Source of the DNA: Aplysia californica
Lineage: Eukaryota
Assembly (NCBI RefSeq): GCF_000002075.1
Contig: NW_004797412.1
Span: 37,493 to 101,492 of the forward strand
DNA: 64,000 nucleotides
Reading direction: 5' to 3'
Under the pieces are notes generated by a model. It searched no databases and was not told where the DNA came from. It saw nothing but the letters and a program-made list of their open reading frames with translations. The translations under genes were made by a program, and so were the position numbers. Below, piece by piece: positions 12,974 to 61,539 of this stretch (the stretch's first letter is position 1; every line of letters starts with the position of its first letter).

Positions 12974-14063
12974 AATTTGCCCATTTTTCACTACGAGCCA
13001 ACCAAACCGGCCAACCAAGCCACATTTATATTTAATTAACACACAATCACACAAGCAGCATGGTACATAAATGAAGAAGTAACAAATCCAACAAACGAGG
13101 AGAAGCAGAGATTGTAGAGAAAAAGACAGACATTTGGCAGCCCTGACAAAAGATTAATAAGAACATAGTATGTAGTATGTTAGAAGTGCAGTCAGTACTT
13201 GTGACATTGTGTAACACAAGAACATACTTGGTCACTGAGTATCACAGTATCACAGTTAAGAAGTAAATTTAGTTTTTTGTTCCCAGACAAATTTTATGTT
13301 AAACATACCACAAGCAAGTCATTTTGAAAGACTGACACAAAATATTCCAAGAAAAATTAGACTCTTCTTCTGTACATTCACCGAGTAGCATGACACAGCA
13401 ACCAGTAATACCCCGACGCCGGAGAATAGCTAAAAAGACGTATGCATTACCTAGATCTAGATCTACTCATAAGAAATATAAATTTAATGACATTCTTCCT
13501 ACGTAAAGCACCTTCCCATTTTATTGTGGTGGGTGAATCAATAGACTGCACCCCTCCCCCCTTCTTAGCCTTGAATACTATAGTCTATAGTAACTTTGGC
13601 TTGTCTTAGTAAGCATTCATGATAGGATCTTTTTATAAATTATATAAAAATTAAATTAGGCTACTAGGCCCTTGCCTTGGTTGGGTTAAAAAGATGTATT
13701 TTTCTGTAGCCTCCACAGAGCAGAGAGACTTTAAGAGCTAAAGTGTCACCCCCCCCCCCCCCCCCCAAAACACACACACACTTGTACTTTTGTAAACAAT
13801 CTCCACACAACCCAGAGTTGTATAGAAGATCTAGAATCTAGATCCAAATATCCAAATATAGAGATAGAATCTAAATCTAGATCTCTAGATTAGTTTAAGT
13901 TAGTGTTAGATCTAGATATTAGAATCTTACAGTAGGACGAGAGAGAGTAGTAGCAAAGTGCCAGTGAGTGAGTTGAGGTGGTAGTGTGTGAACAGGCATC
14001 TGGCACAGGGTTCAGAGTTAGGAAAGTAGTCAGATTTTTTTTAAACAAGGAAAAGCTGTTTAC

Positions 14064-42500: not shown

Positions 42501-45500
42501 CCTCATACTGTGACTAATGAAACTAGGAAAATCAGAAGAGAGTGCAGGGTGAGTATAAAAAAATATACCCTTGGAAAAAAATATTCATTACTTCGTGCTG
42601 TACAAGAATCATTTCCAAGTAAGAGCTATGGAACAACTAACTGGTGATCAGAGAGTATAAAAGCTGTGTCAATTCAGAAATCAATCTAGGTCTAGAGCAA
42701 AGAAATGCAGAAGGGGGAGGGGGGTGATGAGTTCATAAAACTGGAAACGCAAGACATGCTATGAATAGCAACATTGTATAGGCTACATTTTTGCCATTCT
42801 TTCTTCTGTTACGATGCTGCGATAGTTCATTTGCAGACCAGAGACCACATATAAACAACATCAATCAATGAAGATGGTATCATTTGAGTTGGAAGTCCAA
42901 GACTTTGTTAATCCTGATGATGACAAACTCCCCACTCATATAAAGGAACATGCTAATAATCTACTTTCAGCTTAAGAAAATTGGCAGTGTAAGAAATTAT
43001 TTAACTAAAGCAGCTGCCAAGACACTTGTAACAACACTCATTTTATCAAAGTTAGATTACTGTAATGTTATTTTGTCCGGTTTGACATCCGAAAAACTAT
43101 CAAAGTTACAAGTACTCCAAAATCAAGCAGCAAAATTGATAATGAAACAAAAGAAATCAGCCCATGTAACACCAATTCTGAAAGAACTACACTGGCTGCC
43201 AATAAAAGAAAGGATTAAATACAAAACTGCCGTTCTCTGTTTTAAATGTATAAATGATAGTGCACCTTTATATATAAAACATTTCTGGAATTATAAAATC
43301 CACCTAGAGCTCTTAGATCAACCTCTGACAATCTAATTCTTAAAACTCCAAAACAAAATTACAAAACATACGGCGAGCGTTCCTTTTTGTTCTTTGGTCC
43401 CCAGGTATGGAACGAACTCGCATATAAAATAAGATCTGCCCCAACAATTTCCATTTTCAAAAATCAGCTGAAGCATTTTTTATTCACAAAAGCATACCTG
43501 TCATAATGATGTACTGTGATATTTTTGCATGTGTATGCCAGACTGTGAGACTGAAGAAATAGCGAGTGAGAATGAGAGAGAGANNNNNNNNNNNNNNNNN
43601 NNNNNNNNNNNNNNNNNNNNNNNNNNNNNNNNNNNNNNNNNNNNNNNNNNNNNNNNNNNNNNNNNNNNNNNNNNNNNNNNNNNNNNNNNNNNNNNNNNNN
43701 NNNNNNNNNNNNNNNTGTATAGAATTAATGTTTTAATGAATGTTTCTAGTTACTCACGTTTCAACTTTATTTTGACTGTTCGTGAATTTTTATTGCATTG
43801 TATATTTTTAGTGAACACATTTTCAACCTCACTGCGAGACTGTTTTTCTGGTATAAAATTTTACACATATGCATTTATATTATATGTATAATACTTTGTT
43901 TTACGTACACATTTGTGTCGATTAAGTTTTAAGATGTGATGTCTTTTTCATTGTAATGCGCATTGAGTATCTTTTAGGAAATGGAAATGCGCAGTATAAA
44001 TGCTATTTATTATTATTATTATTATGACAACAAGGGAATGTAGAATTTGCCTTTCTTTAACATCCCAGAAATTTAAAGCAAATGACATTATTCCCACCCC
44101 CAACCTAAATCATCATTTACCGCAGTGGAAGTTCCTGACGAGAGACACCAGGGTTGCTGCTGGAGTTACTTCTGTTTGATCGTTTTTGATTCCGGAAAAA
44201 CTCCACCTGAAAGCAAACAAATTAATTTTAGAGCCCCTGAGCATAGGTAGTTAAGTAAATTTAATTTTTGTTCACAGCACAGCCAACATTCTATTGGAAT
44301 TCTTTCTCTTATTCTGGAAACCACTACAGTAAGCCTCACTTGTAATAGTCTCGATAACAACATGATATTGGCTATCACAGACATACAATAAATCCCCAAG
44401 TCTTGTCTCTTATAATGTATAGAAAGTTTTTAAAATGTTTTATAATAGCAGGCATTCGGACAGACATGTCCGGTAAAAACATAGGTTCTGTCACTTACAA
44501 AATCCTAAAACAATGGACAAGACAGAAGAAAAAAAGCAAATGAAGCAAAACAACATCCAACATGGCAAAAGCATCTTGCACCTACATGACCCACAGGCGG
44601 TTTAAGTTGCTTGAGTACACATTTTATGATGTATCTTACTGTGTGCAGAGGAGGGAAGGGGAAAGTTGGACCTACTGGCACAAATTTTCCAGTGCCTCAG
44701 CATGATGTTGGTCTGGCACCACAAAATCATGTCGTCTCCCCTCGGAATGATGAGATTTGTACCAGGAATTAATGACAATGAAAAGTTGTCACTGGGAACC
44801 AGATGAGTCTCAGATCTACATGTGTTCCTTTTCTAAACTGTGGCAACTATTCGACTACGAATAGTTGTACAGCGCACAGAGCATGCTACAGTCACTGAGG
44901 GTGTGACTGGTTTGTAAGGGTAAAGTATTGAAATACTAATTACATTGATCAGTATCAATAAGGAAGGAGAAAAGTTGACAATTTTGTGAAATAAGCAAAA
45001 TTGGCCTTTGAAGGGAGGAAGGATGTATTAATAATAAATAGCATTAGTACAGCGCATATTCCCGCTCAACAGCAGGCTCTATGCGCTTTACACTATATTA
45101 TTACCCCAACAGACCATAGAACGCTCCGAAACATTCTCAGCTTCCCGGAAGCATACAGTGCAAGCAGCTGATTAAGCGCTCAAACACTAACAAACTGACA
45201 AGATCTTTCGCTGTCTATAGCTGGGTACCCATTCCCCCTTTACGGGATTCGAACCCACGACCTTACGGTTGCGAGTCCGAGATTGTACAGCACCTAAATG
45301 CTCTCCACTTAGTCTGAATGAACTGACGTGACCCCTGACTATTAAGTCTTTTTCGAAGTCAGTTTTAGTTGATGTGGGCTTATAACCCATGGAGAGCAAA
45401 ACGTGGTTAACCTTTTTCACCAATCACAATTGTCTCTTCATAATTTGAAGAGGCATGCCATTTCCACTTATCCAATAATGAGCTTTCAGTTCTTGGTCAT

Positions 45501-48500
45501 TGCTGCTCTCCTTAACCTGTCCAAAAATTATAGCTTTCCATCTCCGACTGAATTTCCCGCTCATGTCGTAACGTATCATTGTGTTGCGACGGCACCAATC
45601 AAAATTTGAGAAAGAACAAAACATGGCTGGACGACTAACAGATGACTACATCAAGCAAGTGCGAAGAATGCACACCATTTTGCCTAGCAAATGGCTTTAA
45701 GGTGAATTAAAATGCAATGATCAGGGAAACAAAAGCACGAGTTCAGTTCGATATCGTACAGTTCGATGTGGCCATGTAGGTCTTCCCACTCAGAGTATGA
45801 TGTAAGTTCAGACAGTAGACTCAAATGTGAGTGCAACGTTTGGCAAAAACAAGCATGGTGACGAGTTCACACCTCTGTGTGAACCTGTCTGGCGCAAACA
45901 TTGCACCCAGTCATCAATATTTACACCAGGGCTATGATCACTCACTTGAGAGGATGAATCTGTGATGCAGGCATGGGGCAATATTTTGATTGTGAATTTT
46001 ATCTGTTTGGTCAATCAGCTGCGCAGGTCCGAGTTTTTTGTTAAGTAAATTATGAGCTGCAAAGAAGGACCTTAGCTGAATATAGATCACGGCATACAAA
46101 CAGCGCTCTTTTAGTTGGCTGGGCGATGGAGTGACCGGGTCACGGCGGGCCGGTCACATAGAGGTCACTCACCCGACCTCCCGCTACCTGCGTCGGTAGC
46201 CCATGAAATGAATTTTTCAACACATGTTTCATCGTCTTAAACAAATAAAAAATATCATACGTGAACACAAGTTTGTTCTTTAGAGAAAGCAACTAAACTT
46301 CTTTATTGGTACGAAATAGCAATACCATGGCCGCTCACGTTTTGGAGTTAGATGCTCTTAAAATGTATGTCTATTTATAGTCAGTAAAAAAACCCCACAT
46401 ATTGAGTGGCTAATAACTTATTAGCCTAACGATAAATATTTACCAAACTGCCACGTAAGGCAGGCAATTATGTTAAGAAATTGACTCACTCAAAATGTTT
46501 CAAGCATGATCATGGCACGTGTCATGAGCATGATAGCCAAAACGCTTCCCTGCATTCCTGACTTTTTGTATCCAATGGAATGTGTATCCTCCTGAATAAT
46601 GATATACTGACGTATTTTCAATATACAGCGCCAATTTCTTTTCACAAAATGAACATGTACAGAATAAAAGTATAAATTTATACAATTTTTCTTTCTAAAC
46701 ATATCCAGCAGCACACAATGAGGGAGCTATTAGCAGGAGATGCGACACAAAAATAAAACGCATTATGTCTCTCTGGTTTGGGATCTTTCGTGCTCTGGCT
46801 TCCAGTTTTGAGATCGCTTGGTGGCTGCTTTCTGTGTCCTATTCTCCTAAAAGCCTGAGAGCAAACATGTGTTGTTGTATGTGTGGAATACAGTGTTGCT
46901 ATGATATATGTTGCTTTGGGATGACTTTGCAGGGAAATAGCGTCTGAATGCGGCCATATTGTCGATTGCTACAAGATTTCTGGAAGTGAAAATTGTTCGA
47001 CTGGTTTGAGATGTGATATTGCAGCGTGAACATGGTTAAATCTTTCATTGAGAAGATTGAATATTGCTTCCAGTCCACTTGCTTCCTCAAGTTTTGCAGT
47101 TTCGCGGGAGTATTTTCTTGTTTCTGTACAAATTGTGTTTGTTAATTCCTTGCATACATGGGGATGGAGGGAGGTATGCTTGGGGTGTTTTGCGATGTTT
47201 GCTTGAAATGGATCTTTGTATGCAGTCACCCAAGCAGTGCCGACAAAACGGAGAAGGAATTCACATTTATGCTATTGTCAAACGCACACCACATGTTCCT
47301 ACTAGCGTCAACAGCTTTTTTGCGGCATGAATTGATGTGACGTAACACCATATCTCCTTTTGATAGTTGAAATCGCAGTAAAACATTTGACACAAATGTT
47401 AGTGGAATACGACTGTTCATTTTCGTCCCATTTTCATCAATCCCATAAATCAAGAGAATATCTCCTATTGTCTTATATAATCGGGGCTTTCTGTACTTTT
47501 TTGTTTGACAGTTAAATTCAAACGCCAACACACCCGACAAAGTTAATTCAGAGACTCTCTATGCCTCTCATATGTGTGACCCATTGCAGTTTAACAATTT
47601 TTACTTAGGAACACAATTCACTAACTCATTGCCAGTCACTGCAAAGAGCTGGAAAAACAAAATCCACATCATTAGAAAATATGATTTGATGGCTATCACA
47701 CAGCGTAAACAGAAATAAACACCAATGTTTCATTTTCGAATGATTTGTTATTAAATTTGAAGAGATCACAATATTAACGGCGCTTCCCATCACTTAACAC
47801 TCACAATTTAAAACTGTTATTCCCAAACGAATCAATGAAAACTGTTGAAACTTTCACAAGATACCAAGAAGACGTAGATGAAGCGAAACTGGTGAAGAAG
47901 TAGATTCTAGGGGTAGAGTGAGCATCATTTTACGGCTCATGAAATTAGGGGAAGAAACGCGATCTGATAAGGACAAGATAGGACAGCGCTGTGCACGAGT
48001 TGACCGCGGTCAATCCCCGACTTGACACATGAAATTGCAGCTCACCTGCCGGTGATTTATAGGCCTACCGCGGGGGGGCCGGACTAACTAAATGATCGCT
48101 GAGACAAAATTTTGGACGCCGTGAGATAGCCCTTCAGAGCTGGATCTCGTGAATGAAAAATTGTGTTGAAAAATTGTTTTCATAAAACGGTGGGAGCTTA
48201 AGAGAGCCGGGATCATGAACGAAAGAGTTTTAGGCGCACACTGCTGTATTGTTTTTCTCTTATTACCATTATCATAAAGTATGTTTAAACGTTTGGTTTG
48301 CTCAACTGTATAGTAGCTCACCTTGAGTTGAGTTCCATCTTCAAATCTGTAATCATTCAACTGTTCCACACATCTATTTCAGAGAAAACAAAACAAAACA
48401 AGTTTACGAACATGGAAGCTCAAAATAAATGAGCAAAGAGAATCCTAATTTCTTTTTAACACAAAATTAAGTACATTATTCTATTGAGTGGGTACCAAAG

Positions 48501-58564: not shown

Positions 58565-60821
58565 GTTTCCAGATTGACCACATAATATGTGTCAACAAGA
58601 AATTCAGGAGATCAATGGGATGTTAGTGTTTACAGGGGTGCAGACGTAGCTTCTGACCATCATCTGCTTATTTCAACAATCCGACTAAGACTAAAACAAA
58701 GACAGGGGATTGTCAATCATAGGTGCCGGTACAACGTGGGATTTCTGAGAGAGCCATCGTCAAGAGAGGAGTTTAATGTAGCAGTTAAGAACAGGTTCCA
58801 AGTGCTGGAAACACTAGGAGAGGATAGCAGCGTGGAAGAAACATGGGAGGCAATAAAAGAAGGCTGGACCACTGTGTGTCAAGATGTACTGGGGAAACAG
58901 AAACGTGAGCACAAGCCATGGGTATCTGCCACCACTATGAAGAAGACAGGGATCAGGAAAAAGAAAAGGGATCACGTAAACAGGAGAAAGATAAGAGCAG
59001 CCAAAGCAAAGGCCCAAGAAGAATACACCAAAGCAATGAACGGAAAGACAAAAGAATGTAGATGACCTAGCGCGCGAGGCAGAAGAAGCAGCAGGGGCAG
59101 GAATCATGAGAGGACTGTATGAAACCACCAAGAAACATGCAGGCAGATACAGGAACGCAGATGTGCCAGTTAGGGGTAAAGAGGGAAAGCTTCTCACAAA
59201 TCCAGACGAACAGAAACAACACTGGACGGAGCATTTCAAAGAGCTACTGAACAGACCAAGGCAGAAAAACAGTTTGACATTCCACCAGCAGAGATTGATC
59301 TGGGGGTGAGTGAAGAAAAGCCCAGTTTAGAAGAGACCAAGGAGGTGATAAGACAACCGAAAGGAGGCAAGGCAGCCGGCCCAGATGGAATTCCCCCCAG
59401 AAGTTCTCAAGGCGGATATCGACACTGCAGCAGGGATTCTTCATGGAATTATGGGCAAGAAATAGGACAGCGAAGAATTTCCCAAGGATTGGAGAGACGG
59501 ATTGCTTGTGAAACTACCCAAGAAAAGAGACCTGCATGAGTGTAAAAATTATTTACAGAGGAATCATGCTCCTGTGCATTCCTGGGAAGATTTTAAGTCG
59601 TACCATACTGGAAAGACTGAAGGAAGCCGTGGATGTAAAACTAAGAGAGGAGCAGGCAGGATTTCGTAAAAAGAGATCATGTACCGATCAGATTGCAACT
59701 TTGAGGATAATAGTGGAGCAGTCCACAGAGTGAAACTCTTCCCTGTACGTTAACTTTGTTGACTACGAGAAAGCTTTTGACAGGCTAGATAGGGACCCAA
59801 TATCGAAACTCATGCGCCACTACGGTATACCTGACAAGTTCGTGAGATTGATCAAGAATCAAAAAGATGTATGAGAGAATGAGCTGCCGTGTTTTACTTG
59901 AAGGGCAGCGGACAGACTTTGAAGTGAAAACAAGAGTGAAACTGGGATGCCTGCTATTGCCTCTTCTCTTTTTATTAGCAATGGATTGGAGAATGAGACA
60001 GACAGCGTCGGGACAACGCGGTGGCATACAGTAGACCCTTTCCAGTCAGTTGGAAGACTTGGACTTTGCCGACGACTTGGCACTTCTTTCTCACAGTCAA
60101 GCCCAGATGCCACAGAAGACTAGTCGTCTCAGGGCCTTCTCCCGTAGTGTTGGACTCCATATTCACACGGATAAAACGAAAGTTCTGCGAATGAATGCAG
60201 CCGAGGTTCCTATCACACTGCAAGGGGCACCACTGGCTGATGTTGAATCCTTCACCTACCTGGGAAGTGTCATCAACAAGGCAGGGGGAACAGACGAAGA
60301 CATCAAGGTCAGAATCCAAAAGGCAAGAGCAGCATTCATCATCCTCAGGAATATATGGATGTCTAAGGAACTGGGATTGAACACCAAGCTGAGAATCTCC
60401 AAGACAAACGTGAAGACTGTTCTACTGTATGGTTCAGAGACATGGAGGCTCACAGCATCAGCAGCAAGGAAACTGCCTAAGGAGGATAGTACGGATCAAG
60501 TGGTACGATCGAGTCACAAATGCTCAACTGAGGGAAATAACAAGCCAAAGGCCAGTAAAGGAAGACATACAGGTGAAGAAATGGAAATGGATTAGGTCAC
60601 ACCCTGAGGAGACCCCCGACAAGCATCATCAGACAGGCTCTGACGTGGAATCCACAAGAAGGAAAACATAAGAAAAGAAGACCAAAGATGACATGGAGGC
60701 GAGCGGAACAAGTGGAAATGAAAAAGGCGGTGACATCATGGAAACAGCTACAAAAGGATACAGAGGACAGGCTTCGCTGGAGAAATGTTGTGGATGGCCT
60801 ATGCTCCACTGGGAGTTAAAA

Positions 60822-60880: not shown

Positions 60881-61131
60881 AGTTTCAATAGAATGAGTTC
60901 AGTTTCTAAAAGAACTATAAAAAACCGCAGATACATCTAAACAACAACCAAAATACGAGTTTTAAAAAGACTATGTGGCCTTCTGCGGCCGTGAATGTTT
61001 GGGCAAATACAATAGTTAATGAAAAATAAACTTCAAACAACAGGAATGCGGATTAAATCATGTTAAGAATTTCATGGATGGAAAAGAAATCAAACGAGGT
61101 AGGTCTTAGAGTTGAAAAAGCCTGAGAGGGT

Positions 61132-61539
61132 TAGGAGCACAGAAAGAGCAACCAGACAACAGCGTTAACTACACAGAAATAAAAACTATTATAAGTACAC
61201 TATTTAAAGCAACTCAGACACCAGATGGCTACCATGAGCTGTCCCGCCAAGAACAAGTGATTATCTTAAGACTAAGGACACAACACACAAGACTGAGACA
61301 ACATATGTACAAATGTTTTAAACTAGTACAATCACCAAAATGCCAGTGTGGAGAGACGGACCAAACTGTTGAACACATCCTTCAGCACTGCAAGACACAC
61401 AGGGCCCTGAGACAGGAAACGTGGCCAACCCCACTGACGCTGCTAGAGAAGCTATACGGGCCGACAGATGAACTGAGCAGGACGGCCCAATTTATGACAG
61501 ATACCAGACTTCAAGTGTGATGCGATCGAGAAGAAGAAG
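61132..61539 (+). mobile_element. 5'-truncated LINE 3' end (I-group/Ingi-like, C-terminal CCHC knuckle)
   Basis: RLRTQH...CQCGETDQTVEHILQHC...LYG; (GAA)n tail; 14-bp TSD AAGCCTGAGAGGGT at 61118-61131 and 61540-61553. Confidence 0.85.

Follow-up and report, generated by a model that had tools for sequence, protein, structure and literature searches.

A conserved offset of about one helical turn between the bipartite, CAC-initiated ends of Chapaev transposons

The window (the whole stretch of 64,000 nucleotides of Aplysia californica DNA that was analysed) contains a decayed DNA transposon, the parts of which are listed in Table 1. CAC-initiated ends were read at 46088 and 48123, exactly where an earlier note on this DNA had placed them, and re-reading of the two ends gave the agreement that had been claimed there, namely 11/13 in the outer box and 14/16 in the inner box. 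The inner box begins at nt 14 of the left end and at nt 23 of the right end, again as described, with the 9 extra bases at 48102-48110; these bases can be placed anywhere within nt 9-22, so that their position is ambiguous. An inner-box match of 14/16 was reached, at any offset, by none of 2,000 random pairs of 60-bp window stretches, N-containing draws having been discarded. The element is flanked by an AGAT TSD, which is absent from the earlier note.

Table 1. Parts of the Chapaev element and of its immediate flanks in the window.
Feature	Position	Strand	Remarks
Family A: non-autonomous, internally deleted Chapaev DNA transposon	46088..48123	-	2,036 bp
Left TSD copy AGAT, 4 bp	46084..46087	.	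4-bp TSD in 18/19 rebuilt copies
Right TSD copy AGAT, 4 bp	48124..48127	.	
Short (3′) end, outer CAC-initiated box	46088..46100	+	first 6-8 bases kept across families
Short (3′) end, inner box, nt 14-29	46101..46116	+	
Cross-family motif TTAGTT closing the short-end inner box	46111-46116	+	nt 24-29
Long (5′) end, outer CAC-initiated box	48111..48123	-	
Long (5′) end, 9 extra bases, about one helical turn	48102..48110	-	exact register ambiguous
Long (5′) end, inner box, nt 23-38	48086..48101	-	
TTAGTT closing the long-end inner box	48086-48091	-	nt 33-38
Decayed N-terminal Chapa zinc-finger coding remnant, with frameshifts and stops	47244..47599	-	
Decayed C-terminal transposase remnant: H(4)H motif and last catalytic-Glu region	46698..47178	-	

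Elsewhere in the window, a 219-aa open frame at 13890-14549 (-) resembles an N-terminal exon of SLC12 cation-chloride cotransporters, and the open frames at 42944-43336, 58586-60595 and 61116-61520 resemble remnants of non-LTR retrotransposons. One set of tandem arrays, with periods of 262 bp and less, is present both at 15330-16497 and at 17780-18947, exactly 2,450 bp apart, as the outcome of either a recent duplication or an assembly artefact.

A longer element of the same family (L091, 3,808 bp) has ends as in the window copy and carries the core that is missing there; its 514-aa frame includes the two Asp motifs, C(2)C, LH and H(4)H as well as the last Glu motif. The two elements are 81-88% identical, and the C-terminal remnant of the window copy matches the L091 core frame at 76-82% identity (E 7e-60), the two catalytic Asp motifs lying within the deleted part. 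On this comparison the window copy is a deletion derivative of the L091 element; without its catalytic core, it likely moved in trans. The minus-strand orientation of these remnants makes the right end of the element in the window its 5′ (long) end.

The earlier note had called the element Chapaev-like, which was borne out by the 4-bp TSD, the CAC ends, the Chapa finger and a predicted RAG1/Transib-like fold. By the described hallmarks, the window element and its relatives can be assigned to the Chapaev group with 4-bp TSDs. For Chapaev, TSDs of 3-4 bp are expected (4 bp outside Chapaev3), and these were found as AGAT at the window element and as 4 bp in 18/19 rebuilt copies of its family. An N-terminal Chapa finger, related to the N-terminus of RAG1, is present as a remnant in the window; a family profile matches RAG1 finger 21wb at E 5.5e-5, and Pfam RAG1_imp_bd and zf-AD were matched below cut-off only. 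The Chapaev DDE core with C(2)C, LH and H(4)H was found in the parent L091 and in the intact element L142, and is partly deleted in the window copy. In the Repbase definition of Chapaev the DDE spacings are 60-80 and 220-290 residues; those in L142 are 70 and about 330, the second exceeding that range. A single ATG-started ORF of at least 100 aa (937 aa) is present in L142 within the 4,105 bp between its ends. The available portions of PMC4079192 and PMC4411706 describe CAC...GTG ends, a 4-bp TSD, an N-terminal Chapa finger, C(2)C, LH and H(4)H motifs and a single transposase gene as Chapaev hallmarks, which match the features of the window element and of the families described here; bipartite or uneven ends are not mentioned in these portions, whereas the ends found here are uneven.

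Other assignments were rejected. For Chapaev3, a 3-bp TWA duplication is expected (PMC4079192, in part), and 4-bp TSDs without TWA were seen. For Transib, a 5-bp TSD, a heptamer with an A-tract nonamer and no Chapa finger are expected; 4 bp, a TTAGTT inner motif and a Chapa finger were seen. A RAGL transposon should have a RAG1L+RAG2L pair and a 5-bp TSD, and one gene with a 4-bp TSD was found. Named protein relatives came from gastropods, and no relative was found in viral contigs. Repbase has named Chapaev families from a sea hare according to the portion of PMC4079192 at hand, and these may be some of the families described here.

The genome of the window was searched with each family-A end, which gave at least 40 scored matches per end. 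The inner box lay at nt 14 in all 30 left ends that were fetched and at nt 23 in the 27 complete ones among 30 right ends; the remaining three had damaged tips and the same inner part. Nineteen copies (2.0-2.3 kb, 1.5-6.1% from their consensus, with the window copy at 5.2%) were rebuilt from overlapping loci, and every one of them has one long and one short end. A pattern composed of the outer box, a free gap of 0-30 and the inner box found 81 sites, against 0 for the control, and all 81 have one of two lengths that are 9 bp apart (37 short, 44 long). The earlier note had allowed that the 9 bp might be a private indel of this decayed copy, with most other copies symmetric. Private indels do occur in such ends, as in L161, L160 and L217, but the two fixed lengths in 81/81 ends and 19/19 rebuilt copies refute this reading for the window copy; with both lengths present in the longer parent L091 as well, its probability is practically nil.

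A further 40 transposase-bearing loci were fetched from the genome. In 21 of these the two ends could be located, in 10 a single end (partial in some cases) and in the other 9 no end, and all 21 two-ended loci are long at the 5′ side and short at the 3′ side. Together with the parent L091, these loci make up ten families (A-J), with offsets of 9 bp (A, C), 10 bp (B, D, E, F, G, I) and 11 bp (H, J). Measured from CAC to the end of TTAGTT, the long/short lengths are 38/29 in A, 39/29 in B, D, E, F, G and I, 39/30 in C, and 41/30 in H and J. A 4-bp TSD is present in eight of the ten family representatives (not F and J) and also in three shorter F copies. Most families were found without a motif being assumed; F and G were picked up through the TTAG motif itself, so that families with symmetric ends and a different motif may have escaped the search. 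Fourteen of 19 short metagenome loci were also examined. Both ends were found in L199 (39/29, offset 10), L196 (39/30, offset 9) and L206 (offset 10), single ends at the expected length in L195 and L200, and no ends in the other 9 of the 14. The three metagenome pairs all lack a TSD, a frequent situation in contigs of collapsed repeats. In L206, which carries a RING-bearing transposase (27-35% identical to the rest), the offset is still 10 bp but the inner box is another one.

In 13/13 families with both ends the long end is thus at the 5′ side and the offset is 9-11 bp, the families compared being themselves related. Their transposase cores are 27-64% identical in pairs, the inner box ends in TTAGTT in 12 of the 13, and only the first 6-8 bases of the outer box are conserved across families. 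The one-turn offset (9-11 bp) is a conserved feature of the Chapaev families for which both ends were found. Two broader patterns gave 1,223 sites (687 for the control) and 317 sites (57 for the control); among the first 100 matches listed for the first of them, in which 29 lengths were possible, 72 were at lengths 29, 30, 38 or 39. Among the matches listed for the three patterns, all 58 distinct pairs of ends facing each other within less than 13 kb differ by 9, 10 or 11 (one row of a broad pattern was left out of this count); these pairs are not independent, because copies inherit both ends together.

Shorter and rearranged derivatives were also encountered. A 272-bp miniature element of family C (L165:196-467) keeps long and short ends, as do abundant 1.5-1.7-kb derivatives of family D (L168-L171, L173, L175-L178), in which no coding remnants were detected. 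A decayed Chapaev element at L228:2800-8200 (-), of a RING-bearing family, has a cysteine region of RING type together with a short tandem repeat in its coding part, and there are assembly gaps where its ends may lie. At G000:C45:54648 and 57029, a short and a long family-H end lie 2.4 kb apart in the same direction, not facing each other, which may be due to a local inversion or an assembly error.

The spacer letters are scrambled between families, and the length difference is held at 9-11. In the 10 nt before TTAG, the two ends match at 6.0/10 positions within a family and at 3.5/10 between families; the difference between within-family and between-family box match was reached by 2 of 100,000 permutations (one copy from each of 12 families, L206 excluded, without correction for relatedness). 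This agreement within families suggests recognition of the box by a single protein surface at both ends. Families B, C, D and H show poor agreement, with 2-4/10 before TTAG. The offset could be neutral, left over from a single ancient duplication or insertion in the common ancestor and handed down to all families with its spacing free of selection; a short direct repeat of the kind that a duplication leaves behind is indeed seen in the long ends of B and G (7/8, period 11) and of C (6/8, period 10). The other families lack this repeat (2-6 of 8), and tandem duplication was rejected as a general origin of the long end. Spacer letters have been randomised and the transposases have diverged down to 27% identity, yet the difference stays at 9-11, and the inner boxes have changed in step at both ends; a neutral relic is therefore very improbable.

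One copy departs from the long-short arrangement. At L161:2116-3788 (G000:C3:342615), the long end of a family-C copy has lost 10 bp, so that its ends now measure 29/30. The loss lies between two short direct repeats and the 4-bp TSD is intact; the locus is a single one, part of which is locally duplicated with its flank 3.2 kb away. Of the 14 matches to family-C 5′ ends, 12 are long. The sequence fits a loss after insertion between the short direct repeats; the copy may instead have moved with two short ends, as one case against a strict rule.

Protein modelling was performed with the family-B transposase, for which an intact 937-aa frame at L142:4190-7003 lies between intact ends, the element itself spanning L142:3468-7572. 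Sister copies (L141, L143) are 98.5-99.3% identical, and the borders were confirmed by empty-site sequences (reads and a contig), in which the flanks join at four shared letters. The AlphaFold2 model of residues 244-937 (pLDDT 92.8) had RAG1 as its best match (Foldseek E 6e-16; Z 28.8, rmsd 3.7, 461 residues), followed by HzTransib (Z 24.7) and lancelet RAG1L (Z 24.5), with P transposase far below (Z 11.6); a search with the single sequence against solved structures gave no match. The family-B transposase is thus predicted to fold like RAG1. In several alignments, model residues from about 303 align with RAG1 from 391, the nonamer-binding domain (NBD). When segment 300-367 was folded alone, RAG1 NBD 3gnb ranked 2 of 48,161 chains, with further RAG1 chains at ranks 3, 6 and 12; the match is weak (Z 5.1, rmsd 3.8, 62/68 residues) and level with that of an unrelated b-TrCP domain (Z 5.2). 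Profile and Foldseek searches with this NBD-like segment alone did not find RAG1, and a two-copy complex prediction of the segment in which the alignment was not used scored 0.00 and was given no weight. The segment has a three-helix shape in the predicted model, in the position of the RAG1 NBD, with a conserved Pro-Arg-Lys (PR/RK), a basic helix and the conserved residues Arg305, Arg319 and Arg327; the GRPR motif is absent, and the protein has no CCGHC tail. A three-helix segment is accordingly predicted in place of the NBD of RAG1. For the family-B gene, no RNA holder is listed on record, and one poly(A) run gave 82 patchy reads, with no sign of a full transcript, a result that speaks neither for nor against expression.

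A 12/23-like preference, by which the Chapaev transposase would pair one long with one short end, in line with the asymmetric end-pairing rule suggested in the earlier note, is the probable, if by no means secure, explanation of these observations. The catalytic cores of a transposase dimer would engage the two terminal CAC boxes, and a dimer of the NBD-like segment would bind both inner boxes; the difference of one helical turn would keep both boxes on the same face of the DNA while the dimer tilts, which would favour the pairing of a long with a short end. Cleavage would then be joint for the two ends of one element, and not for like ends of two copies. For RAG, an NBD dimer that pivots to take up the 12/23 difference is described in the consulted part of PMC10629977. 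The expectation, in a section of PMC7204232, that lancelet-type RAGL enzymes are fairly insensitive to asymmetry would count against such a preference, and so do the L161 copy, an inner motif other than the RSS nonamer, and the weak NBD match without GRPR.

The uneven spacing might also be functional without any pairing rule, each end needing its own spacing, and pairs of like ends might then react. The reason could lie in additional subunits of the transposase, as for piggyBac, in a host factor that bends the DNA or acts on the promoter at the 5′ end, or in damping of activity; piggyBac needs asymmetric ends by way of a tetramer, another mechanism (10.1101/2022.09.26.509586, in part). The differing inner boxes of B, C, D and H, the constant position of the long end at the promoter end, the weakness of the NBD-like match and the existence of one short+short copy all speak for this alternative. 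It is nevertheless considered the less likely of the two, since the offset is within one base of a helical turn in 13/13 families, a size that the NBD of RAG accommodates, the same TTAGTT closes both boxes, and the predicted fold is RAG1-like throughout.

A CAC start is shared by the 12/23 RSS and the families described here. The RSS nonamer ends at nt 28 and 39, and the inner box here at nt 29-30 and 38-41; the offset of 11 in families H and J equals that of the RSS, and that of the other families is mostly 10. The inner motif is TTAGTT here and a nonamer in the RSS, and RAG needs RAG2. Marks of a 12/23-type system were seen at the ends, which are bipartite, CAC-initiated and different by about one helical turn in 13/13 families, and, by the predicted model, in the RAG1 fold of the recombinase.

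Uneven ends are known from RAG-like transposons. PflRAGL-A of Ptychodera flava has bipartite ends with a 10-bp length asymmetry (PMC10629977, in part), and AanRAGL has 4/13 spacers, a 9-bp asymmetry (PMC9435367, in part). As far as these parts go, both share bipartite CAC-initiated ends and a RAG1-type fold with the families here, and differ from them in their RAG2L and 5-bp TSD (one gene and a 4-bp TSD here) and in their inner motif; PflRAG1L-A has GRPR/K and the CCGHC tail, whereas the family-B protein has neither (no GRPR in its NBD-like segment). Transib5, Transib2_AG and others have 12/23-like ends (PMC1131882, in part), and uneven bipartite ends are reported for Subgroup I Transibs (PMC9435367, in part). 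From the same portions, uneven Transibs resemble the families here in having one gene, a terminal CAC box, an inner A/T-rich box and a spacing difference of about one turn; they are unlike them in their 5-bp TSD, CACAATG heptamer and A-tract nonamer and in having no Chapa finger. The 5′ end is short and the 3′ end long in the Transib examples of 2005, as opposed to a long 5′ end in 13/13 families here, and many Transib families are symmetric, whereas 13/13 families here are uneven. Activity is reported to depend on unequal ends for ProtoRAG (spacers 27/31; PMC8289069, in part), with a difference of 4 bp versus 9-11 here, and for piggyBac (10.1101/2022.09.26.509586, in part), which belongs to an unrelated superfamily. 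In the available text of a 2021 review (PMC8355894), certain Transibs are given as the only other case of 12/23 asymmetry.

A literature search, with Repbase entries outside its scope, found no description of uneven Chapaev ends, and none is given in the portions at hand of PMC3014272, PMC12730594, PMC7204232, 10.64898/2026.08.26.747230 and 10.64898/2026.01.24.700457. The Chapaev ends have an RSS-like geometry with their own motif, polarity and TSD length, in a known superfamily. The origin of the 12/23 rule is disputed in the consulted parts of PMC10629977, PMC8355894 and PMC9435367 (from a RAG-like transposon or from a separate Transib, with RAG2 needed or not), and PMC4411706 (in part) portrays Chapaev transposases as no more than distant relatives of Transib and RAG1. 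The present results suggest that the one-turn geometry is older and wider than described, or that it arose twice on the same fold. That Chapaev follows a true long+short rule by means of an NBD homologue without RAG2, GRPR or CCGHC, shared by descent with RAG, is a tentative proposal to which somewhat less than even chances are given; if it were true, the 12/23 rule would be older than the divergence between Chapaev and the Transib and RAG-like elements. With L142, an intact single-gene element (937 aa) with both ends, the question can be tested without rebuilding.

In L195, L196, L205 and L206, the Chapa finger is followed by a Gly-Arg-Pro motif. This motif, a long way upstream of the NBD-like segment, could be a second DNA-binding hook. 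Pfam DUF1280 (PF06918) was noted as a marker of the Chapaev-like transposase family, and five public Chapaev-like transposases (P0011, P0023, P0033, P0056, P0069) are labelled 'amine oxidase'.
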